From Dehalococcoidia bacterium (GTDB taxonomy: Bacteria; Chloroflexota; Dehalococcoidia; Lucifugimonadales; CATQGZ01), in contig CBDCXW010000003.1 of the NCBI GenBank assembly GCA_965223945.1, forward strand, positions 30,841-94,840: DNA of 64,000 nucleotides. The letters run 5' to 3'. A model generated the notes under the pieces. That model saw nothing but the letters and a program-made list of their open reading frames with translations, was not told the DNA's origin and made no database searches. The translations under genes and the position numbers were made by a program. This document shows, in pieces, positions 5,352 through 58,257 of the stretch. The stretch's first letter is position 1; each line of letters opens with the position of its first letter.

Positions 5352-6550
5352 GGATACTCTGAGCAAGTCTGTTGGGATGTCATAGTACCATGTCACCGAG
5401 AAGAGAGAGGATGTTTGGGGTGAACGATGCTATGGACCAGCCAACATTTGCGGATCTGGAATACGACGGCAAGAAGCGCAAGACCCGCCGGGAGATATTC
5501 CTGGAGCGCATGGATAGTCTGATCCCGTGGGATCAGATAGAAGAGCGTATCCGCCCCTTCTATCCCAAGGCGGGCCGAGGCCGAAGACCGTATGAGTTGT
5601 CGGTGATGCTGCGGATACACTGCGTGCAGTTGTTCTACAACCTGAGTGACCCTGGTATGGAGGACATGCTCTACGAGGTCGAGTCGGTGAGACGGTTCGT
5701 AGGTCTGAGGCTGTCAGGCCCGCTGCCGGACGAGACGACGATCCTGAACTTCCGTCATCTGTTGGAAGAGCACGAGTTGGGGCAGAGTCTGTTCGAGGAG
5801 ATCAACCGTCATCTCGAATCCCAGGGACTGCGGCTTCGGGAGGGGACGATCGTGGACGCGAGCATCATCGAGGCGCCGTCATCGACGAAGAATCGTGCTG
5901 GTGATCGCGACCCTGAGATGCGTCAGACGAAGAAGGGGAACGAGTGGCACTTTGGGATGAAGGTACACATCGGTGCGGACGCTGAGACGGGAGTAGTGCA
6001 TAGCATATCTACGACATCGGCGAACGTGCATGACGTGACAGAGGCGCACCGGCTGCTTCACGGCGGAGAGAAACGGGTGTGGGGCGATGCGGGGTATCAG
6101 GGAGTCGACAAGCGTGCGGAGAACCGTGAGTTGGGTGTGGACTGGCAGGTAGCGATGAGGCCCGGCCGGCGACGGCAACTGGGGCAAGGGAGCTGTGAGG
6201 CGCTTGCGGAGAAGCACAAAGCATCGATCAGGGCGAAGGTGGAGCATCCGTTCCTGTACGTGAAGCGGCACTTTGGGTACGCCAAGGTCCGGTACCGAGG
6301 GCTGGCTAAGAACACGCAACGACTGATGTTGCTGCTTGGGCTGACCAACCTGATAACGACAGAGCGTTACCTGGTGGCCTGATGGAGGTGAAGTGCGCCC
6401 AAAACTAAAGAACTGGGCGACGAGACATCCCGGCAGAGCCGTTTTAGGGCGATGGCAGCATCAATCGGCATGCAATAAAAGAGCGGACATCCCCGTCAAT
6501 ATCCCTTCTGTACACCCCATACGGCTTACACGAAGTTGTTCAGAGGTTCC
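5352..6550 (+). mobile_element. IS5-family insertion sequence
   Basis: Imperfect TIRs GGATACTCTGAGCAAG / rc GGAACCTCTGAACAAC; CTAG duplication at 5348-5351 and 6551-6554. Confidence 0.92.
5432..6382 (+). CDS. IS5-family DDE transposase
   Basis: PDETTILNFRHLLE, IVDASII, HFGMKVHIG, GDAGY, RAKVEHPF, KVRYRGL. Confidence 0.95.
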   Translation: MDQPTFADLEYDGKKRKTRREIFLERMDSLIPWDQIEERIRPFYPKAGRGRRPYELSVMLRIHCVQLFYNLSDPGMEDMLYEVESVRRFVGLRLSGPLPDETTILNFRHLLEEHELGQSLFEEINRHLESQGLRLREGTIVDASIIEAPSSTKNRAGDRDPEMRQTKKGNEWHFGMKVHIGADAETGVVHSISTTSANVHDVTEAHRLLHGGEKRVWGDAGYQGVDKRAENRELGVDWQVAMRPGRRRQLGQGSCEALAEKHKASIRAKVEHPFLYVKRHFGYAKVRYRGLAKNTQRLMLLLGLTNLITTERYLVA

Positions 6551-23181: not shown

Positions 23182-23571
23182 CTACCGGGTCTGGATCAGC
23201 TCGACCCTGGTCTCCGGAGGACACTTCAGGAATGCGATCAGCGGGCCCCCCGGCACGTCTATCGGTCCCTCCTTGAGCTCGGCGCCGAGACCTACGAGCC
23301 GGGCAATCTCGGCATCGATGTCCTCGACGTCGACGCCGAAGTGCTCAAGTCCGTGGTGTGCGTCGGCGTCTCCGGGCCCAAGTGTCTCTCCGGTCCGTGC
23401 CCCTGAGATGTTCACCGTGAAGCCGGACGGATCGGCGCAGCCGATGAACCGGTCTCCAAATTTACGGACGGTGTCGCTCACTATCTTGAAGTTGAAGGCC
23501 CTTACGAACCAGTCCGCGGTCTCTTTCGGATCGGGGGACTTGATGTGAACGTGGTTGACGCGATAAAGCAC
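23182..23571 (-). CDS. VOC/glyoxalase family protein
   Basis: VNHVHI, LEHFGVDV, TRVELIQ. Confidence 0.88.
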   Translation of the reverse strand: MLYRVNHVHIKSPDPKETADWFVRAFNFKIVSDTVRKFGDRFIGCADPSGFTVNISGARTGETLGPGDADAHHGLEHFGVDVEDIDAEIARLVGLGAELKEGPIDVPGGPLIAFLKCPPETRVELIQTR

Positions 23572-23633: not shown

Positions 23634-23890
23634 GTCAAGGCGGCGCCCACGGCGCCGGTGTGTAGGGGGAGAAGTCACCCTCACCCCAGCCCTCTCCCGT
23701 CGAGGGAGAGGGGGTAAGAATCCCTTCTCGCCACACGATCGTCGTTGTGCCTCATCGTAGGGGCAGACCCTTGTGGCTGTCCCTGGCCGACATCCCCATC
23801 CTGGGCGCCCACAAGGGAAGAAAGTCACCCTCACCCCGGCCCCCGTATCGAGTACGGGGCAGGCCCTCTCCCGTCGAGGGAGAGGGGGTT
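23634..23890. repeat. REP cluster (GTAG-type hairpins, CCCTCACCC..CCTCTCCCGTCGAGGGAGAGGG, CCCCGTATCGAGTACGGGG)
   Basis: Multiple palindromes; related units at 25370-25533, 47855-48017, 52366-52384. Confidence 0.8.
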
Positions 23891-23895
23891 TGGGT

Positions 23896-25227
23896 TCAGA
23901 TCCATATCTTGAAGCCTCCTCTGGACACGGCGAAGGTCATGGCGAGGGCGTCGGCCTCGTCGGGCGAATCGCGCTTGCCGTCCTTGCTTTCGAGCGCTAT
24001 AGCCCCGCCGCGCGGATGGTGGCACCTCCGGGTGGACACCTGGGCGATGAGGGCGGGGTCGTCGTCGGTGTCGAGCGTTCCCTCCTCGTATCTGCTCTTC
24101 ATGGCCCACCAGGCCTCGGTGATGAGGTTGGCGAAGCGGTCGGGGTTCCTGGCCTTCTTGCCGCCGACGAAGGGCACGAGCCTGGTGTGGGGGAGTCGGA
24201 GCTGCCTGAGCCTGTCGACGACCCCTCCGCCGACGCCGGAGTCGTCGACAACGAGGGTGTCGACGCTGTGCCTGTCGCAGTAAGACTCGAGGAACTCGGC
24301 GGTGCTCATGGTGTCGCGGCCGCGCACCCTCCAGACGATTCTGGCGACCGGGCCCTGCCGCCTGACGACGACGGTCTTCGCCTGTCCGAAGCGGGATACG
24401 TCGCACGCGACGACCACGTCTCCCGCTGGCTGGAGGCTCCTCTCGGCTGCGCCGGTCGCGTGGCGGAGGGTGACGACGGCGTCGTCGAGGTTGTCCGGGA
24501 ACCTGCCGAGCACGCCGCCGACGTACATGGGGTCGTTCCGGCCCCAGTCGGCTTTGCGGTCGGTGACGTGGTCCGGGGCGACCATGCCAGGGACGGCGAG
24601 GCGGTCGGCGACGAGGTTGGGCGTGTCGCCCGCGCCGATCCTGACAGTGTCGTACATGTCCCGCTTCGAGTGGTGGGAGTCGTAGAAGGGTCCGGCCGAC
24701 ACGAGGGGGTTGCCGGTCATGAGGGTCAGAGCGGGATTGAGGCGTCTGAGGGCGTCGATGTCCGTCCCGGGGACGGCGTGGGCCTCGGTGACGACGACCA
24801 TCAGGTTGGGGGAGTGGAAGCCCTGGAGGTTGTAGGGGGAGCTGGTGGCGAATCCGATGGCGAAGGTCTGGTCATCGATTTCGTACCGGGAGGTCCGGAA
24901 GACGCGACTCCGCAGGCGGTGTGGGGCGCGTGCGTGGGCGGTCCTGATCTCCCTCCACAGGATGTCGTCGACCTGGCGCGTGGTCGGGCCGGTGACTATG
25001 GCCTTGGCGGGGGAGCGTGAGTGGAGCCACCAGAGGACGGCTCGTGCGGCGGCCCAGTCCTTGCCCGAGCCGTGGCATCCGACGACGGAGACTCGTCGGG
25101 ACCTGGCGACGGCGTTCAGGATGTCCGTCTGCTTGTGGTAGGGCTTCTCGGAGAGGGTATCGCGCACGAAGATGACGGGGTCCGTGTGGCCTTCGGGATC
25201 GGGGCGGGCCGTTTGGCTGCCGGGCAT
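23896..25227 (-). CDS. Phage terminase large subunit-like protein (orphan, atypical Walker B)
   Basis: Q motif, GCHGSGKD Walker A, GPTTRQV, QGFH, VVVTEAH, MTGNP, LGRFP, nuclease ACDVSRFG, VDDSGVGGGVVD, SPDEADA. Confidence 0.85.
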   Translation of the reverse strand: MPGSQTARPDPEGHTDPVIFVRDTLSEKPYHKQTDILNAVARSRRVSVVGCHGSGKDWAAARAVLWWLHSRSPAKAIVTGPTTRQVDDILWREIRTAHARAPHRLRSRVFRTSRYEIDDQTFAIGFATSSPYNLQGFHSPNLMVVVTEAHAVPGTDIDALRRLNPALTLMTGNPLVSAGPFYDSHHSKRDMYDTVRIGAGDTPNLVADRLAVPGMVAPDHVTDRKADWGRNDPMYVGGVLGRFPDNLDDAVVTLRHATGAAERSLQPAGDVVVACDVSRFGQAKTVVVRRQGPVARIVWRVRGRDTMSTAEFLESYCDRHSVDTLVVDDSGVGGGVVDRLRQLRLPHTRLVPFVGGKKARNPDRFANLITEAWWAMKSRYEEGTLDTDDDPALIAQVSTRRCHHPRGGAIALESKDGKRDSPDEADALAMTFAVSRGGFKIWI

Positions 25228-25298
25228 GTATTGAGCATCATCCCAACCTCGGTTTCGGGGCGTCTTGGAGCCCCTCGGGGTCCGTCCCTCTCGGGTGT

Positions 25299-25328
25299 AT
25301 TATACGAACGGATGTGCGTGGTTGTCAA
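25299..25328 (-). promoter_or_regulatory. Sigma70 promoter with LexA-type box for the terminase-like gene
   Basis: TTGACA-18-TATAAT on the minus strand; CGAAC-GGAT-GTGCG at 25305-25318 in the spacer. Confidence 0.8.
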
Positions 25329-25397
25329 GTGGCGCCCACGGCGCCGGTACGTAGGGGGCATGGAACAGTCACCCTCACCCCAACCCTCTCCCGTCAA

Positions 25398-25518
25398 GGG
25401 ACCTTTGCGTAACCTGCCGGACGAGGCGACATCGGGAGTTGTTGACGACACCACCCTGGCTAAACCCCCACCCTCTGGATACCGGCCTTCGCCGGTATGA
25501 CGGTTGTGCAAAGGTCTC
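25398..25518. mobile_element. ~121-bp MITE (family B) inside a REP loop
   Basis: TIR GRGACCTTTGC..AACC, GTCAA duplicated; copies at 32796-32918 and 47882-48003. Confidence 0.88.
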
Positions 25519-25519
25519 G

Positions 25520-26668
25520 TCAAGGGAGAGGGGGATCGGGACCGGCGGAGAGGAGGGCTAGCCCCTTCTTGTGGATCATTGCCGCTGTGTAGCCTGCCCT
25601 GGCTGCGGCCTTGTCGCCGTATATGTAGACGAGGGCGTTGTAGCCGTAGGTGTGCTGTCCGAAGGCGTCGTCGTCGGGGGGATCGGGGACCCGACAGCTC
25701 GGGCAGGGATCGGAGGGCTGGCAGGTATCGTCCTCGGAGTGGACGGCGGCCCTCTGAGCCTCTATCTGGTCGACTTTGTAGTCCAAGACAGCCTGGTTGG
25801 AGGCGCTCTTGGTCTCGTCGTCTCCGAATATGTGCACGAGGGCTTTGTGGCCGTACGTGTCGCGGTCGTACTCGTCTTCGCCGTAGATGGAGAAGTCGTA
25901 GGTGCGGTCTTCGGGGTACTCGAAGTGCGTCCACTCGGACTTCCACTTCCAGGTGGTCTCGGGCACCGGGTCGGCGCCCACGGCGCCGGTATGTGCGTCC
26001 GTGTCGCGGTAGGGGGCGGGCTGCGGCTTGGGCGCGTGGGCCGCGGGGTCGGGGCAGAGGGCTTTGACAACGTCGTAGCCCCGGTTGATGAGCACCTCCG
26101 CGGCCGAGAACCTGAAGTGCTGGTTGAAGCCTGTGCGTGTGCCCTGCATGACGTCGATGAAGAACCGTGCGATGTCTCTGCCGTCGTTGGTCTCCTGTTG
26201 GATGATGTCGGCGAGCTGCTGGGCGGCGGCATCCACGGCGGCGCCCACGGCGCCGGTGGGTAGGGGAGCGCCTTCGCGGGAACGACGGGGGGTGTTGTCT
26301 TCGGCGAGGGCTCGCGCCATCTTGGGGTTGATGATGGCGAGCTGACGCGTGGCCTCCATGCGGTGGCAGGGTTGGAAGTCGGGCAGCCGGCCCGTGACGG
26401 CGTTGATGAGGAACTGGGAGATGAGGTCTCCGCCGCGCGTGTGCTCTCGGACCATGCCGGTGAATTCGGGGCTAGAATCGAGCTTGATGAGCCGGTCGGA
26501 GGCCTGGAGCCGGTGGTGGGGCTTGAAGTCGGGGAGATCGCCGAGCATGGCCTGGGCGAGGAAGTCGACGATGAGCCTTCCGCCCTGGGTCTGCTCGTGG
26601 ACGATGTCGGCGAGTGATGGGCCGACGGCGCCGGTGTGTAGGGGTGCGGTCTGGGTTGCAGGAAACAT
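25520..26668 (-). CDS. Hypothetical protein with three tandem helical repeats resembling small-terminase-like domains
   Basis: Repeats xxxIVxExTxGGxxIxxFLxxxMxG...HRxxAxxxL (third ends LINRGY); second repeat type TYGxxALVxIxGD twice. Confidence 0.6.
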   Translation of the reverse strand: MFPATQTAPLHTGAVGPSLADIVHEQTQGGRLIVDFLAQAMLGDLPDFKPHHRLQASDRLIKLDSSPEFTGMVREHTRGGDLISQFLINAVTGRLPDFQPCHRMEATRQLAIINPKMARALAEDNTPRRSREGAPLPTGAVGAAVDAAAQQLADIIQQETNDGRDIARFFIDVMQGTRTGFNQHFRFSAAEVLINRGYDVVKALCPDPAAHAPKPQPAPYRDTDAHTGAVGADPVPETTWKWKSEWTHFEYPEDRTYDFSIYGEDEYDRDTYGHKALVHIFGDDETKSASNQAVLDYKVDQIEAQRAAVHSEDDTCQPSDPCPSCRVPDPPDDDAFGQHTYGYNALVYIYGDKAAARAGYTAAMIHKKGLALLSAGPDPPLP

Positions 26669-26704
26669 CAGTTCTATTATAGCGGATGTGTCAAGGGGTC
26701 TGAA
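26662..26704 (-). promoter_or_regulatory. Leaderless promoter with LexA-type box over the start codon
   Basis: TTCAGA-17-TATAAT, 7 nt to ATG; AGAAC-TGAT-GTTTC. Confidence 0.7.
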
Positions 26705-26762
26705 CTGTGATTCGTGTGATGGACATGATGGGGATGAGGGGGGGTATGGGGTGGCGGACTAG

Positions 26763-27299: not shown

Positions 27300-28082
27300 C
27301 TATGCGTCAGGGGAATCGCTGGCTGAGCGCGTGGTGACGGCCTGCCGGCTCTGCTTGAGGCGGTAGCTTTCGCCGTTCATCTCCAGGATGTGAACTCTGT
27401 GAGTGAGGCGGTCCAGCAGGGCGCCGGTCAGTCTCTCCGAGCCGAAGACCTCGGTCCACTCGTCGAAGGGCAGGTTGGTGGTGACCAGTACCGACCCCCT
27501 CTCGTATCTCTGGCTGAAGACCTCGAAGAGGAGCTCAGCGCCGGTCTTGGAAAGTGGTACGAAGCCAAGCTCGTCGACGATAAGCAGCTTGAGTCGGGCC
27601 AGCTTCTTCTGGAGGTTGAGCAGTCGCCGCTCGTCCCTGGCCTCGATCAGCTCGTGGACCAGCGAGGCGGCCGTGGTGAAGCCGACCGACAGTCCCCTCT
27701 GGCAGGCGGCGAGCCCCAGACCGAGGGCCACATGGGTCTTGCCGGTGCCGCTGTTGCCTATGGCGATGACGTTCTCCCGCCGGTCTACGTACTCGCAGCG
27801 TGCCAGCTGCATGGCCAGGTGCTTGTTCACCGACGGCATGGCCAGGAAGTCGAAGGTGTCGAGGCTCTTGGTGGCGGGGAAGCGTGCCGCCTTGATCCTG
27901 CGGTCAACCATCCGATGATGGCGGTCTATCAGCTCAAGCTCAGAGAGCCTCAGCAGGTAGCCTGGATGGTCGACGCCCTCGGCGGCGCACTGGCCGGCCA
28001 CCTTGCAGTACTCCCTCAGGAAGGTGGGCAGCTTCAGCTCCTTGAGGTGATGCTCCAGCAGCACCGTAGACCTCTCGCTCAC
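27300..28082 (-). CDS. istB: IS21 helper ATPase IstB
   Basis: GNSGTGKTH, LLIVDELG, TTNLPF, LLDRLTH, GESYR. Confidence 0.95.
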   Translation of the reverse strand: MSERSTVLLEHHLKELKLPTFLREYCKVAGQCAAEGVDHPGYLLRLSELELIDRHHRMVDRRIKAARFPATKSLDTFDFLAMPSVNKHLAMQLARCEYVDRRENVIAIGNSGTGKTHVALGLGLAACQRGLSVGFTTAASLVHELIEARDERRLLNLQKKLARLKLLIVDELGFVPLSKTGAELLFEVFSQRYERGSVLVTTNLPFDEWTEVFGSERLTGALLDRLTHRVHILEMNGESYRLKQSRQAVTTRSASDSPDA

Positions 28083-28919
28083 CGCCCGATCCCCGACATG
28101 AGCGCCATGTAGTCGCTGGCTGCTGTCTTCGTCACGGTGACCCTGGGCAGGTAGGGGTACAGCTCCAGGTCGAGTCTCTGGGGACGGCCCTCTATCCTGC
28201 ACAGCACCAGGTGTTTGATGGCGTCGAAGCTTATGGCGCCGAGCCTGAGGGCATCACGCACGGCCTCGTACACCTCCTCCTTGCGGAAGTTCTCCACCAA
28301 CCGCAGCACCTGTACGAACTCACGCTTGCCGCGCCTGCCCATCCTCGACTCCAGCAGTCTGCGCAGCATGCCGAACTCCTCCGGCAACTCCCACCCGGCC
28401 AAAGGAGCAGCCTGGTCCAGCGCTCCCGTCTTGCGCTCCAGCAGCGGCAGGTAGTGGACAGGGTCGAAGACGAAGTCGTCGCGTTCGTATGAGCGCGGAT
28501 GCCGGGCTATCACCTCTGCCCCGCAGCTGATCACCACGTCACCCACATAGCCGCGCACCACCACCTCCCTGTGACCGTAGGCCACGGGCACCGAGTAGTC
28601 GTTGGTCCGGTACCGCACCAGGGACAGGGAGCTGACACGGCTCACGTGCTTGTCGCTGGCGTCGTATGGCACGGCGGGGAACGCCAGCAGGGCTTCCAGG
28701 TCACGCTCCATCCGCTGGCCTATCGTCTCCCTGTGCCCACGCAGCTGTCTCCCCATCCGTTCCAGGCACCTCTCCTCGAGGTAGGCGTTGAGCGCATCGA
28801 AGCTCGGGAACGACGGCACTGGCACCAGGAAGTTCCGGCGAGCATATCCCACCAGCCCCTCGACCTTGCCCTTGTCGTTACCCTTGCCGGGACGGCCGAA
28901 CCGGATGCTCCTATAGGTG

Positions 28920-29993
28920 TCAAGGAGTGCTGTGGGATAGGGCTGAATTCCGTAGGACGGAGAAGACCTCGCGAGCCACATAGCGTTTGAGGCAACGGAT
29001 GACCTCGGCCTTGCTCATTCCCTCTTTGGTGCGACGACGCATGTAGGTCTGGGTGCGCGGATCGTATCGAAGTCTGACGACAACAATGCGATGGAGAGCG
29101 GCGTTGGCCTGGCGGTGCCCACCTCGGTTGAGCCGATGCCGGTTGGTCTTGCCAGAGGAGGCAGGTATGGGATTGACTCCGCACAGGGAGGCGAAGGCAG
29201 CCTCGGAGTGGAGACGGTCCGGGTTACTCCCGGCAGCAATGAGGAGGGTCGCCGCCGTGTCTGGCCCTATGCCGAAGCCATCTACCAGGGCCGGGGCTGC
29301 CGTCCGTGTAAGTCGATCGAGCTCGGCCTCCAGGTCGTGGACCTCCTTGCTGAGCTGACGGTAGCGGCGGGCAAGGGAGCGCAGGGTGTATCTGGCCGCT
29401 GCCAGGGGACCATCCAGACGACCGGTGCGGAAGCTCTTGCAGCGCGTGACTAGGGCACCGGCAGCGAGACCATCGAGCGTTTCGCGAAGCTCGGCCGGGG
29501 CCGTGACAACCAGCGCCTTCATCTGGTTGATGGCCTGGGTGCGAGCCTTGACGGCCGAGTCCTTCGCGCTCTTGAGCATACGGATCATTTCGACTTCACC
29601 CTCACCTGACTTGGGAGTGGCATCGGCTACTCCGGCAAGCACGGCACGCGCTGCCATCTCCGCATCAGTGGGATCGCTCTTCCCCTTCCGGTAGCGGGTT
29701 GACCGGTCGGGCCGGTTAACCTCCACGACGGTATGTCCCCTACGCGTCAGGTAGCGGGTGACTCCAGCGCCATAGGAACCTGTGCCCTCAATTCCGAAGG
29801 CCTGAATCTCTCCCAGGCCTAGTGACCACCGCTCGAGCTCCTCATACCCATTGGTGGTCGCAACCGTGCGAAGCTCTTCCAGACGGACACCCTGACGGTC
29901 AATGGCCACAGCCACATGCTTGTCCTGGTGAGTGTCCACTCCTATGACCACCTGAACAGAACGACCGCCTTCTTGATCGACAACTCCCATCAT
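28920..29993 (-). CDS. IS110 DEDD recombinase/transposase
   Basis: IGVDTH, GIEGTG, KSDPTDA, GIGP, ASSGK, LKRYVAR; GAGGAGG RBS. Confidence 0.95.
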   Translation of the reverse strand: MMGVVDQEGGRSVQVVIGVDTHQDKHVAVAIDRQGVRLEELRTVATTNGYEELERWSLGLGEIQAFGIEGTGSYGAGVTRYLTRRGHTVVEVNRPDRSTRYRKGKSDPTDAEMAARAVLAGVADATPKSGEGEVEMIRMLKSAKDSAVKARTQAINQMKALVVTAPAELRETLDGLAAGALVTRCKSFRTGRLDGPLAAARYTLRSLARRYRQLSKEVHDLEAELDRLTRTAAPALVDGFGIGPDTAATLLIAAGSNPDRLHSEAAFASLCGVNPIPASSGKTNRHRLNRGGHRQANAALHRIVVVRLRYDPRTQTYMRRRTKEGMSKAEVIRCLKRYVAREVFSVLRNSALSHSTP

Positions 29994-30009
29994 CTCTACG
30001 GCCTCCTCT

Positions 30010-30200
30010 GGGATGGCGCCCTGGCTGGGTGAGCGGACAGGACTGCGATGGGACTTGAGCCAAGCTCCTATGAGGTCACTGCTCCCCAAACCGTTGGCAC
30101 CTTATGGGCCATCTCCAGTTCGCGTCGACAGATCACGAGGAAGGCATCTCAGCCAGTCCCACTACGGGTCAGACCCAAACCGAGATGGCCCACACACATC
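30010..30200 (-). ncRNA. Candidate IS110 bridge RNA
   Basis: Non-coding end with a 10-bp stem GGGCCATCTC/GAGATGGCCC and 8-nt segments matching both donor ends. Confidence 0.6.
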
Positions 30201-31083
30201 ATCGCAGTCCTCGAACAGGTAGTGCGACACCAGCTCCGAGAACACACGAGTACGCTGGCGCCGGCCGTCTCCCAGGATCCTGGCCACCGCCAGTCTCGTG
30301 TTGTCGTACAAGATGCTCCGCGGCACGCCGCCCAGGAACGAGAACGCCGAGACGTGACCGTCGCAGAACGCCTCGGTCGTCTCTGCGGGGTAGGCCTTGA
30401 CGAAGCACGCGTCGCTGTGGGGAAGGTCCAGCACGAAGTAGTGGATGGTCTGCTCCACTCCTCCGATGACCGCCTTCGCCTGGCCGAAGTCGCACTGGGC
30501 ATCACCAGGAGGATGGGAGAGCGGAACGTACATCTCGCGTGTCCGGCGCCGTCGCTCGCGCACGTAGTCCTTGACTATCGTGTACCTGCCACCGAACCCG
30601 TGCTCCGCTCTCAGACGGTCATAGATCCGCTTCGCCGTGTGGCGCTGCTTCCTCGGAAGACGCCGGTCCTCTTCCAGTATCCGGTCGATCACCCCGTGGT
30701 ACGGGTCCAGCTTAGGGCGACGCGGCGGTGACTGTCGACGGTACCCGGGTGGCACCGAGTACTCCAGCATCTTGCGCACCGTGTCCCGGTGCAGCCCGAA
30801 CACCCGGGCAGCCTCTCGCGTGCTCATCCCTTCCACCATGCAGGCCCGGCGCACTCGAACGTACAGTTCCACTTTGTACATCCTTCACACCTTCCATCGA
30901 GTTGCCTCCAACTCTATAGAAGGCGGCGGGTGGTCCAGTTTTGCAGCGCCACTCCCGGACGCTCACCCCCGCCTCGCCGGTCCATTATTACTCCGCCCTT
31001 TACACTTTGGGACCAGTGCAGATCAGCGAAGAGGCACAGGAACGGTTCCGGCAAAGCTTCAAGGAGTTCAAGGAGTTCGAGGC

Positions 31084-40945: not shown

Positions 40946-42658
40946 CCCGAATCCACCGATGCGGAGCGGCCTTGGGGTTGGAACAAGGGGTGAGGGCCGT
41001 GGGACGCGACGGTCCGCGCTCGATTCCGATAAATGGGGCCGGTGGCGGCCTTTGGTTGTCGTTGGGGGCGCCGATGGCGGTCCTGGGCAGCGGCGCTGGG
41101 GCGGGGTCGGCGGGACAGCATGCAGGGGAAGACAATCGCGGACCGGGCCGGTGCGACTCTGTGGGTCGGTTGGGTAGTCTGGTGGACGTGTCAGGCGCCG
41201 TCGGTGCCGTCAGGCAGGCAATGGCAGGGCTCGCAATCGAGCCAGGGCGCGAGTGAACTGGGTTTCCCAAGGCCAGCCCTGTGGCAGATGCAAAGTGAGG
41301 CGGCGGGCCGAGCGGGTGAGCCGTCCGGCCAGGGAGAAGAAGCGCCGCCGGAGGGTCTTGGTGGTCACCACCCCCTCGTCCAGACCGATGCGCGCGGTCC
41401 AGCGGGCCAGGTTATGGGCCAGCACCTGGACGGCCAGCCATGCGCCGTTGGCGGGGAAGCGGCCCGAGGGGAGATGGTTGAGGCCGACGCCGTGCTTGAG
41501 GTCTCGGATAGCATTCTCAATCTCGGCGTGGCGGCGATGGTCGGCCTCCAGTTCCAGGGTTTCCCCGTCCCGGTCGGTGATGAAGCCGTGATAGCTGTAG
41601 CTGGCGAAGAGGGCCAGTTGGGAACCGGGCGTGGGCTTCACCCGCCGGACGATGAGCCGCACTGGGGCGGCTTCGGGCTCACCCTGGAAGGGAGTGTAGG
41701 TGGTCTCGGCCACGTCGGCGCCGCCGTCCATCCAGTAGGGGACGGGCGTCCAGTCCTCCTCGGGAATCGCCTCAATCAACTCCCTGAGGCGGGCGTGTTG
41801 GCGGATGGTGATGGAGAAGCGGACATCCATCTTGCGGCAGACGACGACCAGGGCGTGGGCATAGAAGCCGCTGTCGGCCCGCACCGTGAGTTGTCCTGTA
41901 GCCCCAGCATGGCGCACCCGGCCCACGGTCTCCCGCAGGAAGTGGGCGGCGCCCCGAACGGTGTTGGCGCGGCCCTCGCGCAGCCGAGACATCAGCACGT
42001 CGCCGGTGCCGGCGGCGATGGCCAGCAGCGGGTGATAGCCCCGCTGGCCAGTGTAACCATGGTGACGCGCCCCCTCCTTGGCCAGTCCGTAGGTCTCGCA
42101 CATGGTGGAGTCCAAGTCGATGGTCAACGGCCCTTCGCCGGGTCCCGCACCAGCGGCCCAGGCCCGGGACAGCAACTCCCGGCTCACCCGATCCAACTGG
42201 CGGACGTGGCCCCACCGGAAGCTGCGCAGGAAAGTTCCCAGGGTGGATGGCGCCTTGACTACGCAGCCGATGGCGCCAGCTGTCCCGCCGGTACGCAACA
42301 CGTCGGCGTCGTCAATGAAGTCGCCCCCAGCCAGCGCCGAGGCCACCAGGGTCAGCATCTTGTCTCCTGGGTTCGCTCGCCCCGGCGCGTCTCCCAGGTC
42401 GACGTGGCTGTCGACGACTTCACGCAGGCCCAGGTGCTGGGCTAGGGTCACCGGGAGGAGCAGCCCAGCATTGGCCACCAGGCGGTGGTCGTCGAAGGCG
42501 ATACGGATGCGGTCGGGATGGTTGCGTGCTAGCATCTATCGGGTGCTCCTTGTTCTGGGGTCGGCTTTGCTGTTTCAAAACCATTATCCCAGATTCACAG
42601 GAGCACCCTCTTGCCGCTTCAGGACACTGACCCGACGCCCTCCTTCGGTGGATTCGGG
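40946..42658 (-). mobile_element. IS1380-family element, copy 1
   Basis: TIR CCCGAATCCACCGA; flanks CTTAG/CTAAG; 1713 bp. Confidence 0.93.
41210..42535 (-). CDS. IS1380 transposase
   Basis: APSTL, IDLDST, GYHPLL, VRADSGF, HAEIENAIRDLK. Confidence 0.93.
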   Translation of the reverse strand: MLARNHPDRIRIAFDDHRLVANAGLLLPVTLAQHLGLREVVDSHVDLGDAPGRANPGDKMLTLVASALAGGDFIDDADVLRTGGTAGAIGCVVKAPSTLGTFLRSFRWGHVRQLDRVSRELLSRAWAAGAGPGEGPLTIDLDSTMCETYGLAKEGARHHGYTGQRGYHPLLAIAAGTGDVLMSRLREGRANTVRGAAHFLRETVGRVRHAGATGQLTVRADSGFYAHALVVVCRKMDVRFSITIRQHARLRELIEAIPEEDWTPVPYWMDGGADVAETTYTPFQGEPEAAPVRLIVRRVKPTPGSQLALFASYSYHGFITDRDGETLELEADHRRHAEIENAIRDLKHGVGLNHLPSGRFPANGAWLAVQVLAHNLARWTARIGLDEGVVTTKTLRRRFFSLAGRLTRSARRLTLHLPQGWPWETQFTRALARLRALPLPA

Positions 42659-48054: not shown

Positions 48055-49767
48055 CCCGAATCCACCGATGCGGAGCGGCCTTGGGGTTGGAACAAGGGGT
48101 GAGGGCCGTGGGACGCGACGGTCCGCGCTCGATTCCGATAAATGGGGCCGGTGGCGGCCTTTGGTTGTCGTTGGGGGCGCCGATGGCGGTCCTGGGCAGC
48201 GGCGCTGGGGCGGGGTCGGCGGGACAGCATGCAGGGGAAGACAATCGCGGACCGGGCCGGTGCGACTCTGTGGGTCGGTTGGGTAGTCTGGTGGACGTGT
48301 CAGGCGCCGTCGGTGCCGTCAGGCAGGCAATGGCAGGGCTCGCAATCGAGCCAGGGCGCGAGTGAACTGGGTTTCCCAAGGCCAGCCCTGTGGCAGATGC
48401 AAAGTGAGGCGGCGGGCCGAGCGGGTGAGCCGTCCGGCCAGGGAGAAGAAGCGCCGCCGGAGGGTCTTGGTGGTCACCACCCCCTCGTCCAGACCGATGC
48501 GCGCGGTCCAGCGGGCCAGGTTATGGGCCAGCACCTGGACGGCCAGCCATGCGCCGTTGGCGGGGAAGCGGCCCGAGGGGAGATGGTTGAGGCCGACGCC
48601 GTGCTTGAGGTCTCGGATAGCATTCTCAATCTCGGCGTGGCGGCGATGGTCGGCCTCCAGTTCCAGGGTTTCCCCGTCCCGGTCGGTGATGAAGCCGTGA
48701 TAGCTGTAGCTGGCGAAGAGGGCCAGTTGGGAACCGGGCGTGGGCTTCACCCGCCGGACGATGAGCCGCACTGGGGCGGCTTCGGGCTCACCCTGGAAGG
48801 GAGTGTAGGTGGTCTCGGCCACGTCGGCGCCGCCGTCCATCCAGTAGGGGACGGGCGTCCAGTCCTCCTCGGGAATCGCCTCAATCAACTCCCTGAGGCG
48901 GGCGTGTTGGCGGATGGTGATGGAGAAGCGGACATCCATCTTGCGGCAGACGACGACCAGGGCGTGGGCATAGAAGCCGCTGTCGGCCCGCACCGTGAGT
49001 TGTCCTGTAGCCCCAGCATGGCGCACCCGGCCCACGGTCTCCCGCAGGAAGTGGGCGGCGCCCCGAACGGTGTTGGCGCGGCCCTCGCGCAGCCGAGACA
49101 TCAGCACGTCGCCGGTGCCGGCGGCGATGGCCAGCAGCGGGTGATAGCCCCGCTGGCCAGTGTAACCATGGTGACGCGCCCCCTCCTTGGCCAGTCCGTA
49201 GGTCTCGCACATGGTGGAGTCCAAGTCGATGGTCAACGGCCCTTCGCCGGGTCCCGCACCAGCGGCCCAGGCCCGGGACAGCAACTCCCGGCTCACCCGA
49301 TCCAACTGGCGGACGTGGCCCCACCGGAAGCTGCGCAGGAAAGTTCCCAGGGTGGATGGCGCCTTGACTACGCAGCCGATGGCGCCAGCTGTCCCGCCGG
49401 TACGCAACACGTCGGCGTCGTCAATGAAGTCGCCCCCAGCCAGCGCCGAGGCCACCAGGGTCAGCATCTTGTCTCCTGGGTTCGCTCGCCCCGGCGCGTC
49501 TCCCAGGTCGACGTGGCTGTCGACGACTTCACGCAGGCCCAGGTGCTGGGCTAGGGTCACCGGGAGGAGCAGCCCAGCATTGGCCACCAGGCGGTGGTCG
49601 TCGAAGGCGATACGGATGCGGTCGGGATGGTTGCGTGCTAGCATCTATCGGGTGCTCCTTGTTCTGGGGTCGGCTTTGCTGTTTCAAAACCATTATCCCA
49701 GATTCACAGGGGCACCCTCTTGCCGCTTCAGGACACTGACCCGACGCCCTCCTTCGGTGGATTCGGG
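48055..49767 (-). mobile_element. IS1380-family element, copy 2
   Basis: Near-identical to copy 1; perfect TSD GTAAG. Confidence 0.95.
48319..49644 (-). CDS. IS1380 transposase
   Basis: Same protein as 41210-42535. Confidence 0.93.
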   Translation of the reverse strand: MLARNHPDRIRIAFDDHRLVANAGLLLPVTLAQHLGLREVVDSHVDLGDAPGRANPGDKMLTLVASALAGGDFIDDADVLRTGGTAGAIGCVVKAPSTLGTFLRSFRWGHVRQLDRVSRELLSRAWAAGAGPGEGPLTIDLDSTMCETYGLAKEGARHHGYTGQRGYHPLLAIAAGTGDVLMSRLREGRANTVRGAAHFLRETVGRVRHAGATGQLTVRADSGFYAHALVVVCRKMDVRFSITIRQHARLRELIEAIPEEDWTPVPYWMDGGADVAETTYTPFQGEPEAAPVRLIVRRVKPTPGSQLALFASYSYHGFITDRDGETLELEADHRRHAEIENAIRDLKHGVGLNHLPSGRFPANGAWLAVQVLAHNLARWTARIGLDEGVVTTKTLRRRFFSLAGRLTRSARRLTLHLPQGWPWETQFTRALARLRALPLPA

Positions 49768-56442: not shown

Positions 56443-56485
56443 ACTCACGGTGCCGGGCGGCCCGGGCCGCGCGTTCTCGCAGGCG

Positions 56486-57820
56486 ATGCTTGCCCTAGGC
56501 TACTACCGGCTCCGGGAGCCTGGCGTTCCTGTGGAGCGGCTCCAGGAGACCTTCTCGGAGTACTGCGACCTCTACCTGCATCAGCCCATCGACATGTTCG
56601 TCGACGTTGGGGACGGGCCGCCCTATCCGGAATACGCCCGGATGGTGAAGTACATGGAGGACTCGCCCAGTGACTTCCTGATAGTCGTGCCAGGCGCAGA
56701 GCACCTCGGCACCGACCTAGAGTCTGTCGCGCGCTCAGTGCTCAAGCTCGAAGGCGTGGGCGCAAAGGTAAGCTGCGCCGACGAGGACCTCCCGGACCCG
56801 CTCCAGAACGCGCTGGCGACCATCGGAGTCGAGAACGTCTCGCGAGACCGCAGCGACCGGATCAGAGACTCGATGCGCCGGCTTGCCATCGAAGGGCGCA
56901 CCCTCGGCCGCCCACCCTACGGGTACCGGAGCGGGCCGGACGGCGTGCTGGAAGTCCATCCAGAAGAGGCGGAGGTCGTAAGGCTGGCTTACAGGCTGTA
57001 TACGGATGACTGCCGAGGCCTCCGGCTCATCGCCGGCGACCTCAACGAGCGCGGCCTCACGACCCGCAGGGGTGGCAGGTGGAACGTCGCGACTCTGAGG
57101 GACATGCTGAGGAATCCCGCGTACGTCGGCACCTATACCAGGTTCGGCCTGCGAGTGCCGAAGAGCCACAAGGCGATAGTCGCGCCCGAGACGTTCCGTG
57201 CCGCCCAGGATGTCTTCAGGGCGCGGAGGCGCCGTGTCAGCGCTCCGGCGTCCGAGCCTTTCCTGCTATCGGGGATAGCCTACTGCGCAGAGTGTGGGAA
57301 TAAGATGATCGGCGTGACCCGCAGGCAGACGTGGAGACGGAAGGACCGCAGCCGACACAACCGAATTTACAGGTACTACCAGTGCCAGTCCCGTAATAAC
57401 CTCAGCGTCTGCCGGTACCACACTTGGCGAGCGGAGGCGCTGGAGGAGCGCACGCTGCGAATGCTCGAAGAGCTCCTGAGCGGCGAGGCGCCGGAGGACG
57501 CCGACCGCCGACGCTCCGAACGCGAGGGAAGACTCCGGGAGGCATCGGGGCAGCGGCTCACCAACGCCAGGCGTCGGTTCCTGCGTGCACTGCGAAGGGT
57601 CGCCACTGGGGAGGCCCCGACAAGGGACCTAACCGTCCACCTGGACGAGCTTGAGGCTCTGAGGCGCGCCGTCGACCCAGACCCCGACTCGCCGCCAGCG
57701 AATGCACGACTTACCCTTGGTAAATGGGAATCTCTCGACATCTCGGACAGACAGAACTTTCTGAGACTGCAGATCGACCGGATAGTAGTCGGGGACGATG
57801 CGGTGGAGCTGGTGGCCTGA
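56486..57820 (+). CDS. Large serine recombinase-like protein lacking the canonical catalytic Ser
   Basis: GRPPYGY, LRNPAYVG, LLSGIAYCAECG, YYQC; N-terminus YYRLRE instead of YxRVS. Confidence 0.85.
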   Translation: MLALGYYRLREPGVPVERLQETFSEYCDLYLHQPIDMFVDVGDGPPYPEYARMVKYMEDSPSDFLIVVPGAEHLGTDLESVARSVLKLEGVGAKVSCADEDLPDPLQNALATIGVENVSRDRSDRIRDSMRRLAIEGRTLGRPPYGYRSGPDGVLEVHPEEAEVVRLAYRLYTDDCRGLRLIAGDLNERGLTTRRGGRWNVATLRDMLRNPAYVGTYTRFGLRVPKSHKAIVAPETFRAAQDVFRARRRRVSAPASEPFLLSGIAYCAECGNKMIGVTRRQTWRRKDRSRHNRIYRYYQCQSRNNLSVCRYHTWRAEALEERTLRMLEELLSGEAPEDADRRRSEREGRLREASGQRLTNARRRFLRALRRVATGEAPTRDLTVHLDELEALRRAVDPDPDSPPANARLTLGKWESLDISDRQNFLRLQIDRIVVGDDAVELVA

Positions 57821-57859: not shown

Positions 57860-58257
57860 GGGCCCGAGGTTGCCGGGCGGCCGCCCCGACTCGTCGGGGA
57901 GGAAAGTCCGAGCTCCCCCCAGGCAGGATGCCCGCTAACGGCGGGGCGGGGTGACCCGACGGAAAGTGCCACAGAAACATACCGCCCTTCCATTTCGGGA
58001 GGGTAAGGGTGCAAAGGCGGGGTAAGAGCCCACCGCTCCGGTGGTGACATCGGAGGCCAGGCAAACCCCATCCGGAGCAAGGCCTAATAGCGGGACCATG
58101 GGCGCCTGGGCCCGTCCCCGGGTTGGCCGCACGACCCTTCCGGCAACGGGAGGGCTAGATAGATGGCCGCCGCCGGCCGGTTATCGGGACGAAGCCCAAC
58201 AGGTGTAAACCGTTGCCCGGTCCGGTACAGAACTCGGCTTACAGGCTGCCTCGGGCT
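57860..58257 (+). ncRNA. rnpB: RNase P RNA
   Basis: GAGGAAAGTCC, AGTGCCACAGAAA, GGTAAGAGC, GGAGCAA, ACAGAACTCGGCTTA; P1 pairing; TAGAAT upstream. Confidence 0.97.

Follow-up and report, generated by a model that had tools for sequence, protein, structure and literature searches.

A large-terminase paralogue with a LexA-type operator in a Dehalococcoidia genome and its relation to a dispersed phage-head gene set

Here we describe an intact gene for a phage-type large terminase (TerL) in a 64,000-nucleotide stretch of a Dehalococcoidia genome (hereafter the window); its sigma-70 promoter carries a LexA-type operator. We moderately favour the reading that this TerL is an orphaned paralogue from a phage-head gene set that occupies several loci, is inherited vertically and is probably under SOS control; the set is a candidate for a system resembling gene transfer agents (GTAs) and has been eroded in this genome; it is because of that erosion that the window copy is an orphan. 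A preliminary description of the window, made from its letters, had proposed a domesticated, DNA-damage-inducible terminase-like gene pair, either a GTA-like system scattered across the genome or a repurposed DNA motor.

The terminase gene and its surroundings

The features of the region are listed below in window coordinates.

23182-23571: glyoxalase-family gene, on the housekeeping side
23642..23668, minus strand: REP-like 27-mer on the downstream side of TerL, immediately ahead of the glyoxalase-family gene's -35, with an exact 18-nt core
23896..25227, minus strand: TerL (large terminase) paralogue, 443 aa, intact open reading frame (ORF), phrog_2 match
25228..25298, minus strand: 5' leader of TerL, conserved with the copy on contig C7 (upstream alignment by eye)
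25299..25328, minus strand: sigma-70 promoter of TerL, TTGACA-18-TATAAT, 12/12 hexamer matches
25306..25317, minus strand: LexA-type operator GCACATCCGTTC in the spacer of the TerL promoter, one base from the -10
25331..25358, minus strand: REP-like genome-wide repeat of about 27 nt bordering the duplicated TerL unit on its upstream side, with an exact 18-nt core
25400..25516, no strand assigned: MITE-like insertion of about 117 bp whose ends are inverted (GACCTTTGC...GCAAAGGTC), within a REP hairpin, read from the sequence
25520..26668, minus strand: P0002, helical-repeat protein of a multi-copy family, 382 aa, function unassigned by profile or fold
26663..26674, minus strand: LexA-type box GAACTGATGTTT overlapping the P0002 ATG, a leaderless arrangement
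26676..26704, minus strand: sigma-70 promoter of P0002, TTCAGA-17-TATAAT, 10/12 hexamer matches
26702..26713, minus strand: distal LexA-like box GAATCACAGTTC overlapping the P0002 -35, conserved upstream of paralogues
27300..30881, minus strand: IS islet, IS21 (IstB, IstA) with an IS110-family transposase inserted (Pfam IstB_IS21, Mu-transpos_C_2, DEDD_Tnp_IS110)

The assignment of the first gene as TerL-like held. The PHROG profile phrog_2 ('terminase large subunit') matches residues 10-433 (E 2.3e-30), and a profile of the family built from 30 sequences matched the Sf6 gp2 terminase structure (E 1e-5), with the nuclease region (residues 233-362) covered by this PDB match; Pfam Terminase_6N remained sub-threshold (12.9 bits, cut-off 22). 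The motifs GSGKDW, VVVTEAH, CDVxRFG, VVDDxGxGGG, and SPDEADALAM do not vary among 30 relatives and recur in phage contigs of IMG/VR. In our own reading, GCHGSGKDW would be the Walker A motif and VVVTEAH the Walker B motif with the catalytic Glu; S54, G55, K56, D57, T147, and E148 are unchanged in 30/30 sequences, and the acidic residues D276, D328, D423, E424, and D426 are invariant in the same 30-sequence alignment. The protein combines a TerL profile match and N-terminal ATPase motifs with a C-terminal RNase-H-like nuclease bearing conserved acidic residues, as is expected of a large terminase. Contigs from two RNA libraries overlie parts of TerL and P0002 (word depth 2.6-4.8), and are evidence neither way because DNA carry-over is possible.

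The two genes lie, as first described, between housekeeping genes (glyoxalase, Yip1, HIT) and the IS islet. Equally borne out was the lack of portal and capsid genes in the window: tblastn with the portal, capsid, and neck proteins of relatives gave matches on contig C4 only, and Pfam scans of the window returned no phage structural gene. Integrase, repressor, replication, lysis, and tail modules were found neither in the window nor in the eight relatives' loci scanned, and only XRE-type HTH genes stand beside some TerL genes; the linked modules typical of a prophage or PICI were thus not seen. A serine-recombinase-like gene occurs 31 kb off, at 56450-57820, and nothing was seen linking it to TerL or P0002. 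The P0002 stop codon lies in the REP hairpin interrupted by the MITE-like insertion, on both sides of which CCTTGAC is repeated. An in-frame 'PLHTGAVG' motif was rejected as a protein repeat or pac site, because it belongs to the REP-like genome-wide DNA repeat (81 matches with up to 2 mismatches in this genome) and falls in variable linker insertions of the family alignment.

P0002 does have the three tandem helical repeats claimed for it, each of about 45 aa (internal similarity and AlphaFold helix pattern). The AlphaFold model, with a mean pLDDT of 55, is good only over residues 18-125 (pLDDT about 90), and ESM Atlas scores reach at most 0.83. Profile and structure searches returned nothing for P0002 in Pfam or PHROG at E <= 0.01 (weak sub-threshold rows were DUF6894, E 0.16, and phrog_6694, E 0.017) or in Foldseek against the PDB at E <= 0.001, and none of its 174 relatives carries a Pfam domain or a name. 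A small-terminase role, suggested by position and a motif resemblance, was dropped because no profile matched; no fold match was obtained either, nor is the position upstream of TerL conserved, a P0002-like gene preceding TerL at only 2/80 loci. Of the proteins encoded upstream of TerL in relatives, the one at locus L078 is unrelated to P0002 and the one at L115 has only helical repeats in common with it. The gene 'pair' of the preliminary description accordingly dissolves: P0002, with a GC3 of 0.85 and at least six full-length paralogues in this genome, is present in 10/151 genomes against 49/151 for TerL. It is not a partner of the terminase, but one of a family that has expanded on its own and is expressed from a leaderless promoter with a LexA-type box.

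TerL copies in this genome and the head-gene set of the order

This genome holds three TerL copies, on contigs C3 (the window), C7, and C4; compared with the window copy, that on C7 is 90.5% identical and that on C4 70.9%. By blastn, the unit duplicated between C3 and C7 measures 1434 bp at 90.9% identity and extends from the -35 to the stop codon (window 25329, its upstream boundary, to 23896). The window and C7 copies are duplicates that span promoter to stop codon, and the C4 copy is the ancestral one. The latter adjoins a portal gene bearing a TAG stop and is separated from its own promoter by an IS21 copy that resembles the window IS21; other IS elements also interrupt the locus, and tblastn with relatives' proteins found no adaptor or terminator gene in this genome. 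With neither adaptor nor terminator located and the C4 TerL deprived of its promoter, the window TerL has no evident working partners; it is a duplicate and not the resident copy of the system. The dN/dS ratio (NG86 without codon-bias correction) is 0.385 (about 0.39) for all three pairs, with dS of 0.157 for C3-C7 and 0.56-0.58 against C4. This ratio is only moderate, and we read it as selection having kept the window TerL intact so far. Multi-copy paralogues in other genomes mostly give 0.08-0.54, and two very recent pairs (dS <= 0.06) give 0.42 and 0.72.

A survey of 151 genomes of the order (SAR202-type Dehalococcoidia) found 49 with TerL, 58 with portal, and 51 with a 491-aa capsid gene, 42 genomes holding both TerL and capsid by our own reading of the tables; about two thirds of the genomes sampled lack the set. 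Portal, protease-like, capsid, adaptor, and 'tail terminator' genes were recognised at the clusters, while neither tail genes nor a small terminase were recognised at those scanned and other small ORFs had no match. The portal follows TerL directly at 42 of the 57 loci with TerL at least 47% identical. Among families with a close TerL lineage the capsid is 71-81% identical, nearly always without a stop. Many genomes carry the set in two parts, a TerL-portal locus and a protease-capsid-adaptor-terminator locus, and in single-contig genomes capsid and TerL lie 742 kb (G040), 444 kb (G143), 180 kb (G011), and 1.16 Mb (G096) apart. The flanks are housekeeping genes (rplY, mfd, GNAT, ABC transporter); in 6 genomes drawn from 5 families, rplY is the neighbour either of the cluster or of its capsid portion. 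Several relatives retain TerL-portal or TerL alone, and solo TerL may be multi-copy (six copies in G134, three to five in other records).

The phylogeny of TerL mirrors host families: all 8 multi-member GTDB families are monophyletic, and the 14 label changes equal the minimum, compared with a mean of 25 for shuffled labels (0/200 shuffles as good). The three copies of this genome group with congener G032, the C3/C7 stem being long (0.37 substitutions per site). It is important to note that family-specific temperate phages would give the same family-level congruence. As in GTAs, phage structural genes are conserved with the host lineage without integration or replication genes; a complete particle gene set including tail was not found at the clusters scanned. 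The scattered arrangement first suggested for a GTA-like system, with dispersed portal and capsid genes under LexA-type boxes, is encountered in many relatives, while in this genome the set is eroded.

That these genes are inert debris, decaying remnants of old prophages whose boxes are left-over phage operators without a present role, seems unlikely to us. In its favour are the TAG-bearing portal, the IS-interrupted C4 locus, and the failure to find adaptor and terminator in this genome, the patchy distribution (49/151), and relatives reduced to TerL-portal or TerL, but ORFs are intact in nearly all genomes, the catalytic residues are invariant (30/30), paralogue dN/dS within genomes is mostly 0.08-0.54 (the 0.72 coming from one near-identical pair), the capsid is 71-81% identical across families with the close TerL lineage, and the promoters and operators of both operons are conserved across families.

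LexA-type operators and the predicted regulation

The region has three promoter-like sites where 0.4 would be expected, and the P0002 ATG follows its -10 by 7 nt; each gene does have its own sigma-70 promoter with an overlapping box, as had been proposed. Both GCACATCCGTTC and GAACTGATGTTT carry one core mismatch to GAAC-N4-GTTC, one half of the TerL box being non-consensus (GCAC). We take both boxes to be real because they are conserved, and not on the strength of the single sites. The corresponding TerL box is GTACATGCGTTC at the C7 copy and GTACATGTGTTC at the displaced C4 promoter, after which the start of the TerL leader is also present. Among relatives, the boxed promoter precedes TerL at 34/80 loci, or 34/57 at >= 47% TerL identity and 0/23 below it; the 34 boxed loci give the operator consensus GnAYATnTGTWC next to TAnnnT, with G at position 1 in 33/34 and, in the second half-site, G in 31, T in 34, T/A in 34, and C in 32 of 34. 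All eight capsid operons examined have a GAAC-N4-GTGC-type box in the promoter. P0002 paralogues bear the box in 6/6 cases, perfectly as GAAC-N4-GTTC in 4, and a perfect version of the distal box (GAACCGCAGTTC) occurs at C4:196661. The layout -10/A/GAAC-NN-ATG was read at the starts of 10/18 relatives' P0002 genes inspected, with GCTC-ATAT-GTTC in 4 more; a strict '-10 plus full box' regex recovered 1/24 relatives' loci only. Conservation of the boxes is apparent at all three kinds of gene.

The LexA box type named in the preliminary description is also found where a host SOS regulon would have it, before lexA (twice GAACAGATGTAT), recA (GAACGCATGTTT), ruvB (GAACACGCGTTC), and imuB-dnaE2 (GAACGCCAGTTC) of this genome and before lexA of 5 relatives. 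By sequence, TerL looks like a member of a LexA regulon, its operator resembling the genome's own LexA box, overlapping the promoter, and being conserved in orthologues. Dehalococcoides presumably uses a Gram-positive-type LexA box; a literature search on the Dehalococcoides LexA binding sequence found nothing. Control by another regulator, such as an element-encoded XRE/CI-type repressor, so that the genes would not be SOS-controlled, is in our estimate improbable. HTH_3 genes do adjoin TerL in G032 and G001 and occur upstream within the C4 locus, one half-site is often GTGC/GCAC in place of GTTC/GAAC, and 51/506 promoter-like sites in this genome bear such a box, many beside IS ends, which is many for one regulon; but the same 12-mer type precedes the SOS genes listed above, a GAAC-N4-GTGC box stands at one relative's own lexA, and the dispersed capsid loci travel without a repressor gene.

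Under the favoured reading of an inherited, SOS-controlled head-gene set, an old HK97-type head-and-neck set (TerL-portal plus protease/scaffold, major capsid, adaptor, and 'tail terminator') would have been inherited with the chromosomes of the order, its split loci in many genomes having to work in trans. Each operon would be transcribed from a sigma-70 promoter whose spacer holds a LexA-type operator adjacent to the -10, through which LexA would bind and repress the head genes; DNA damage would lead to LexA self-cleavage and derepression, and TerL, as ATPase and RNase-H-like nuclease, would then pump DNA through the portal into capsids. The resulting system would resemble a GTA or other domesticated particle. 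Counting against this reading are the lack of recognised tail genes and small terminase at the clusters scanned, the many genomes without the set, stops or splits in some copies (the portal TAG here, a split portal in G020, a TAG in TerL of G046 and G052), the erosion seen in this genome, the non-consensus half of the window TerL box, the 0/23 result below 47% TerL identity, and the only moderate dN/dS.

That orphan TerL acts without portal and capsid, as an SOS-induced nuclease or translocase, a phage-packaging decoy, or a self-amplifying gene, is quite unlikely, since the multi-copy solo genes, the boxed promoter and low dN/dS retained per copy, the duplication here of exactly promoter plus gene, and the long C3/C7 stem are met by motifs that are all still those of packaging terminases, by a non-dedicated literature search that found no portal-independent terminase function, and by unit edges in G134 without terminal inverted repeats or target duplications, whose REP-like flanks could mediate ordinary recombination. 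The unit was accordingly rejected as a mobile element. A bolder extension, which we put forward with considerable doubt, is a domesticated multilocus head system triggered by DNA damage, with all operons wired directly to LexA. Among Chloroflexota it would be the first particle system for DNA packaging that is GTA-like or tail-less, and in several lineages its terminase gene would have become independently amplifying, SOS-inducible, and selected even without portal and neck genes; if true, such selection would imply a portal-independent role for the terminase.

Comparison with known systems

SAR202 and related Dehalococcoidia are uncultured and abundant in the deep ocean and sponges, and to our knowledge almost nothing is known of their DNA exchange. 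A damage-linked head-gene regulon, if true, would offer this clade a concrete candidate for a means of transferring genes or making particles, and selected multi-copy orphan terminases raise the question of whether a packaging motor is reusable alone. For annotation, a lone TerL among housekeeping genes need not signify a prophage. A literature search on GTAs or prophage capsids in Chloroflexi/SAR202 returned nothing relevant in the parts of the texts available.

Known GTAs have tails; in RcGTA, control lies with GafA/CtrA, and LexA has an indirect role. Judged in part from the abstracts of three papers (PMC5026251, PMC5721377, PMC10883770), RcGTA-type multilocus GTAs of Alphaproteobacteria and the present set both have head genes without recognisable integration or replication genes, are conserved with the host lineage, occupy more than one locus, and are under host-type regulation. 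The set differs from RcGTA in being without recognised tail genes or small terminase, in its phylum (Chloroflexota), and in having direct LexA-type operators in its promoters (8/8 capsid operons, 34/80 TerL loci). HK97-type phages of IMG/VR have TerL 46-54% identical with the same motifs and the same order of TerL, portal, and adaptor; they differ in portals (about 24-28% identical), in capsids (not detectably similar), and in G+C (0.40-0.59).

Among phage satellites, cf-PICIs likewise encode their own head, neck, and terminase genes and no tails, but each is a single contiguous island that moves horizontally and carries integrase and replication modules, neither of which was seen at the clusters examined. 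Operon I of the staphylococcal SaPIs offers a likeness in regulation, as a packaging and capsid-morphogenesis operon under the direct LexA control that is predicted for the set. SaPIs are, however, mobile islands with integrase, repressor, and replication genes that encode TerS and not TerL, portal, or capsid, whereas the genes of the set are chromosomal, dispersed, and follow host families; if true, they would show terminase and capsid operons controlled directly by LexA, which is rarely met beyond phage satellites.

Terminase gene, neighbouring gene and promoters in the window

The source genome (G000) is assembled into 8 contigs (4.02 Mb, 63% G+C), with the window at positions 30841-94840 of contig C3; the locus studied here holds two genes of coding-type composition, P0001 (GC3 0.90) and, upstream of it, P0002 (GC3 0.85). 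They are flanked on one side by housekeeping genes (glyoxalase family, Yip1, HIT) and on the other by an IS21 element with an IS110 inside, followed by the trp operon. Searches of the 64-kb window found no portal, capsid or tail genes, in agreement with the preliminary description, and no tRNA genes.

Features of the window (window coordinates; promoters located by consensus scan)
5372-6382: DDE_Tnp_1 element
23642-23659, 25331-25348, 25973-25990, 26240-26257: REP-like repeat, exact core
23896-25227, minus strand: P0001, large terminase (TerL), 443 aa
25317-25306, minus strand: TerL box GCACATCCGTTC, in the promoter spacer, one base from the -10
25328-25299, minus strand: TerL promoter, TTGACA-18-TATAAT
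25400-25516: MITE-like element, 117 bp, inverted ends CCCTCTCCC..GGGAGAGGG, inserted in a REP hairpin
25520-26668, minus strand: P0002, helical-repeat protein, 382 aa
26618-26635: REP-like repeat, 3 mismatches
26674-26663, minus strand: P0002 proximal box GAACTGATGTTT, one base after the -10, including the ATG
26704-26676, minus strand: P0002 promoter, TTCAGA-17-TATAAT; a second box, GAATCACAGTTC, lies over its -35
27300-30881: IS21 with nested IS110
41210-42535 and 48319-49644: DDE_Tnp_1_4 transposase ORFs
56450-57820: serine-recombinase-like gene
57865-58257: RNase P RNA gene

Profile and motif evidence identifies P0001 as a large terminase, as its first designation (TerL-like) had it. The protein matched phrog_2 over residues 10-433 (PHROG profile search, E 2.3e-30), with a sub-threshold match only to Terminase_6N in Pfam, and a profile of its 30-sequence family matched the phage Sf6 gp2 terminase structure (E 1e-5). 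Alignment of 30 relatives showed no variation, in any of the 30, at two ATPase motifs (GCHGSGKDW, VVVTEAH) or at five acidic residues of the nuclease (D276, D328, D423, E424, D426), and related terminases on IMG/VR viral contigs carry identical motifs.

Two promoters were located, and each gene does possess its own sigma70 promoter overlapped by a LexA-type box (GAAC-N4-GTTC-like), as previously claimed. The proximal P0002 box begins one base past the -10 and holds the ATG, so that the mRNA would be leaderless. Boxes of the same type accompany lexA (at C4:206 kb; two inverted GAACAGATGTAT sites around the promoter) and recA (GAACGCATGTTT over the -35) of the source genome, as well as lexA of five relatives (G[AT]AC-N4-GT[ATG]C). 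Perfect GAAC-N4-GTTC sites lie upstream of ruvB and the imuB-dnaE2 operon, among others, at promoter positions; genes behind perfect or near-perfect boxes also include a DUF1802 gene and a DUF5131 (phage Gp37/Gp68-like) gene (C8:735571-741500, C8:552900, C5:254530 and C8:1063020 for these boxed genes). Genome-wide, 51 of 506 promoter-like sites had a box next to the -10 (12 adjoining bases matching 7 or 8 of 8 core positions), versus 2 at a control offset. Judged by sequence, LexA would be expected to bind the TerL, capsid and P0002 boxes.

About 50 promoters of the source genome are stereotyped, with TTGACA, a LexA-like box abutting the -10 and an ATG 6-8 nt on (e.g. C1:119545, C1:878618, C4:101076, C5:35215, C8:314728). 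Many of them flank IS elements of several families, immediately beyond the terminal repeats, which suggests either SOS-linked transposition control or a promoter module targeted by IS elements. The IS load of the window is high, and its two DDE_Tnp_1_4 ORFs do not differ in length (441 aa) or in Pfam score. The serine-recombinase-like gene (Recombinase + Zn_ribbon_recom), 31 kb off and directly before the RNase P RNA gene, showed no visible link to the terminase locus.

The REP-like repeat (~27 nt, 18-nt core) occurs in 81 copies in the 4-Mb genome at up to 2 mismatches, is arrayed in tandem close to contig ends (C2:1150-1300, C5:4823-4955), is abutted by several different IS ends, and is covered very deeply by each of the four sequencing runs examined. 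It is translated in frame ('PLHTGAVGA') within variable linker insertions of P0002 and relatives. The MITE-like element has CCTTGAC on both sides, and the hairpin that it interrupts provides the last codons and stop of P0002; most relatives have a longer C-terminus.

A head-gene set across the order

Records of related loci are titled as Dehalococcoidia, Chloroflexota and SAR202 MAGs. Among 151 sampled species-level genomes of the order, TerL was found in 49 (E <= 1e-10; mostly one intact copy, the close lineage being 50-68% identical), portal in 58, and a 491-aa major capsid gene, almost always open, in 51; our tables read as TerL and capsid together in 42. The capsid is 71-81% identical across families with the close TerL lineage. 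Eighty loci were retrieved together with 10 kb on either side, and in 57 of them TerL shares 47% identity or more with the window copy; portal lies directly downstream in 42 of these, with capsid also nearby in 11 of the 42, and TerL stands alone in 15. At the 23 loci with more distant TerL, portal was detected in 2 only, with a query that may be too divergent to reveal it there. Genes beyond the window were called by an ORF and GC3 heuristic, which misses some genes (e.g. TerL in one fetched locus, L044).

Contiguous clusters in two genomes (G049 and G001) carry, in order, TerL, portal, a protein of 260-290 aa that weakly matches head proteases, the major capsid gene, several small ORFs without assignment, a head-tail adaptor (phrog_442) and a 'tail terminator' (phrog_17840). 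ORFs without assignment measure 167, 92, 93, 99 and 565 aa in G049 and 158, 99, 270, 161 and 98 aa in G001. No integrase, replication, lysis, tail-tube or tape-measure genes were recognised in these two clusters (annotation comprised a Pfam scan of eight relatives' loci and a PHROG scan of two clusters). In other genomes the protease-capsid-adaptor-terminator block lies apart from TerL-portal, by 180 kb (G011), 444 kb (G143), 742 kb (G040) and 1.16 Mb (G096) in single-contig genomes. G049 and G040 are among the genomes whose set is intact.

A GAAC-N4-GTGC-type box next to the -10 was present at the promoter of 8/8 examined capsid operons; in the contiguous clusters this promoter lies between portal and protease. 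An analogous boxed promoter occurs at 34/80 TerL loci, all among the 57 closer ones (consensus GnAYATnTGTWC|TAnnnT). Dispersed head genes with conserved boxes, which the preliminary description had proposed to look for, are present in many relatives. The capsid-operon leader of the source genome and 7 relatives contains a small conserved hairpin and then a G+C-rich stem with a T-run (L159:15800-15960, i.e. C4:269.8-270.0 kb of the source genome). This resembles a terminator placed in the leader itself; regulation by read-through may therefore supplement the operator.

Terminase and P0002 copies in the source genome

By tblastn, TerL occurs in three places in the source genome: in the window (C3), on C7 (90.5% identical) and on C4 (70.9% identical). 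A 1434-bp unit running from the -35 (window 25329) to the stop codon is common to C3 and C7 (90.9% identity), and the C7 promoter has a better box, GTACATGCGTTC. The C4 copy looks eroded: its promoter, TTGACAGAGACGTACATGTGTTCTAGGCT, lies 5.3 kb upstream with IS21 DNA in between, and downstream of it come a portal gene (PF04860) interrupted by a TAG codon and then IS elements. The adaptor and 'tail terminator' were not found in this genome. With a stop in portal, adaptor and terminator not found and the resident TerL cut off from its promoter, the head-gene set of the source genome is eroded, which makes the window TerL an orphan.

In the TerL tree these copies group with a congener as (G032,(C4,(C3,C7))), with a long stem to C3/C7. 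All three pairs gave dN/dS 0.385 (NG86, without codon-bias correction), at dS 0.157 for C3-C7 and 0.56-0.58 versus C4. Paralogues within five other genomes mostly gave 0.08-0.54, and two very recent pairs (dS <= 0.06) 0.42 and 0.72. The intact, promoter-bearing and moderately constrained window TerL may have lost its partners recently or may have an independent role, and the multi-copy solo TerLs of other genomes leave room for the latter. Several relatives have three to six intact solo copies with a boxed promoter (six loci in G134: L082, L087, L088, L090-L092; also the records behind L099-L108 and L123-L141). The repeated unit in G134, ~2.6 kb of REP-rich non-coding DNA plus TerL, has no evident inverted ends.

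P0002 comprises three helical repeats of ~45 aa each and a C-terminal domain that is strongly conserved. Neither Pfam nor PHROG gave a match at E <= 0.01, fold and Atlas searches gave none of note, and none of the 174 protein-database members of the P0002 family carries a domain or name. Paralogues in the source genome number at least six at full length, besides several partial ones; most are solitary among housekeeping genes, and three adjoin IS481-type transposases. All six full-length copies share an upstream region, with a perfect GAAC-N4-GTTC box over the ATG in four. Among 18 inspected family genes of other genomes, 10 have the layout -10, A, GAAC-NN-ATG and 4 more GCTC-ATAT-GTTC; a stricter pattern fitted 1/24 only.

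TerL and P0002 had been described as a pair, which they are not. Only 2/80 relatives' loci have a P0002-like gene upstream of TerL, and P0002 occurs in 10/151 genomes (often multi-copy) versus 49/151 for TerL; it was not found in the two congeners of the source genome. At the one locus compared (L115), the gene upstream of TerL has only helical repeats in common with P0002. Both orphan TerL copies (C3 and C7) have a P0002 paralogue no more than 3 kb away; the only explanations we offer are shared repeat-rich insertion sites or old linkage.

Inheritance and likeness to known systems

In a TerL tree of 32 rows, all 8 GTDB families represented by more than one member were monophyletic, congruent with host taxonomy. 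Label changes were at the minimum of 14 (25 on average for shuffled labels; 0/200 shuffles as good); since related genomes share labels, the result speaks for clustering and not for independent events. The gene for ribosomal protein L25 (rplY) directly adjoins the cluster, or the capsid part of it, in G000 and G032 (family f1), G049 (f49), G021 (f22), a contig that its coordinates assign to G054 (f54), and G020 (f21), with mfd also nearby in G000 and G049, and the order GNAT, TerL, portal, ABC transporter is common to G040 and G118. Free-phage relatives are represented by 529 IMG/VR contigs that encode a related TerL (46-54% identity for the nearest among those listed); the portals of such contigs are only ~25% identical and their capsids have no detectable similarity. 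The simplest account would be that an HK97-type prophage head module was acquired early in the order, probably beside rplY, and was kept under selection and split into two operons in many lineages, with a LexA-type operator wired to it throughout.

The split, conserved, boxed head-gene set looks like a candidate multilocus gene transfer agent (GTA), a kind of system defined by particles with random host DNA. Of the scattered GTA-like system suggested earlier, the dispersal stands, as capsid and TerL-portal loci lie apart, boxed and congruent with families; no tail genes were recognised in the clusters examined, so the set departs from a GTA in this respect. The boxed head-gene operons also recall the SaPI satellites, whose packaging operon is LexA-repressed (PMC3152322).
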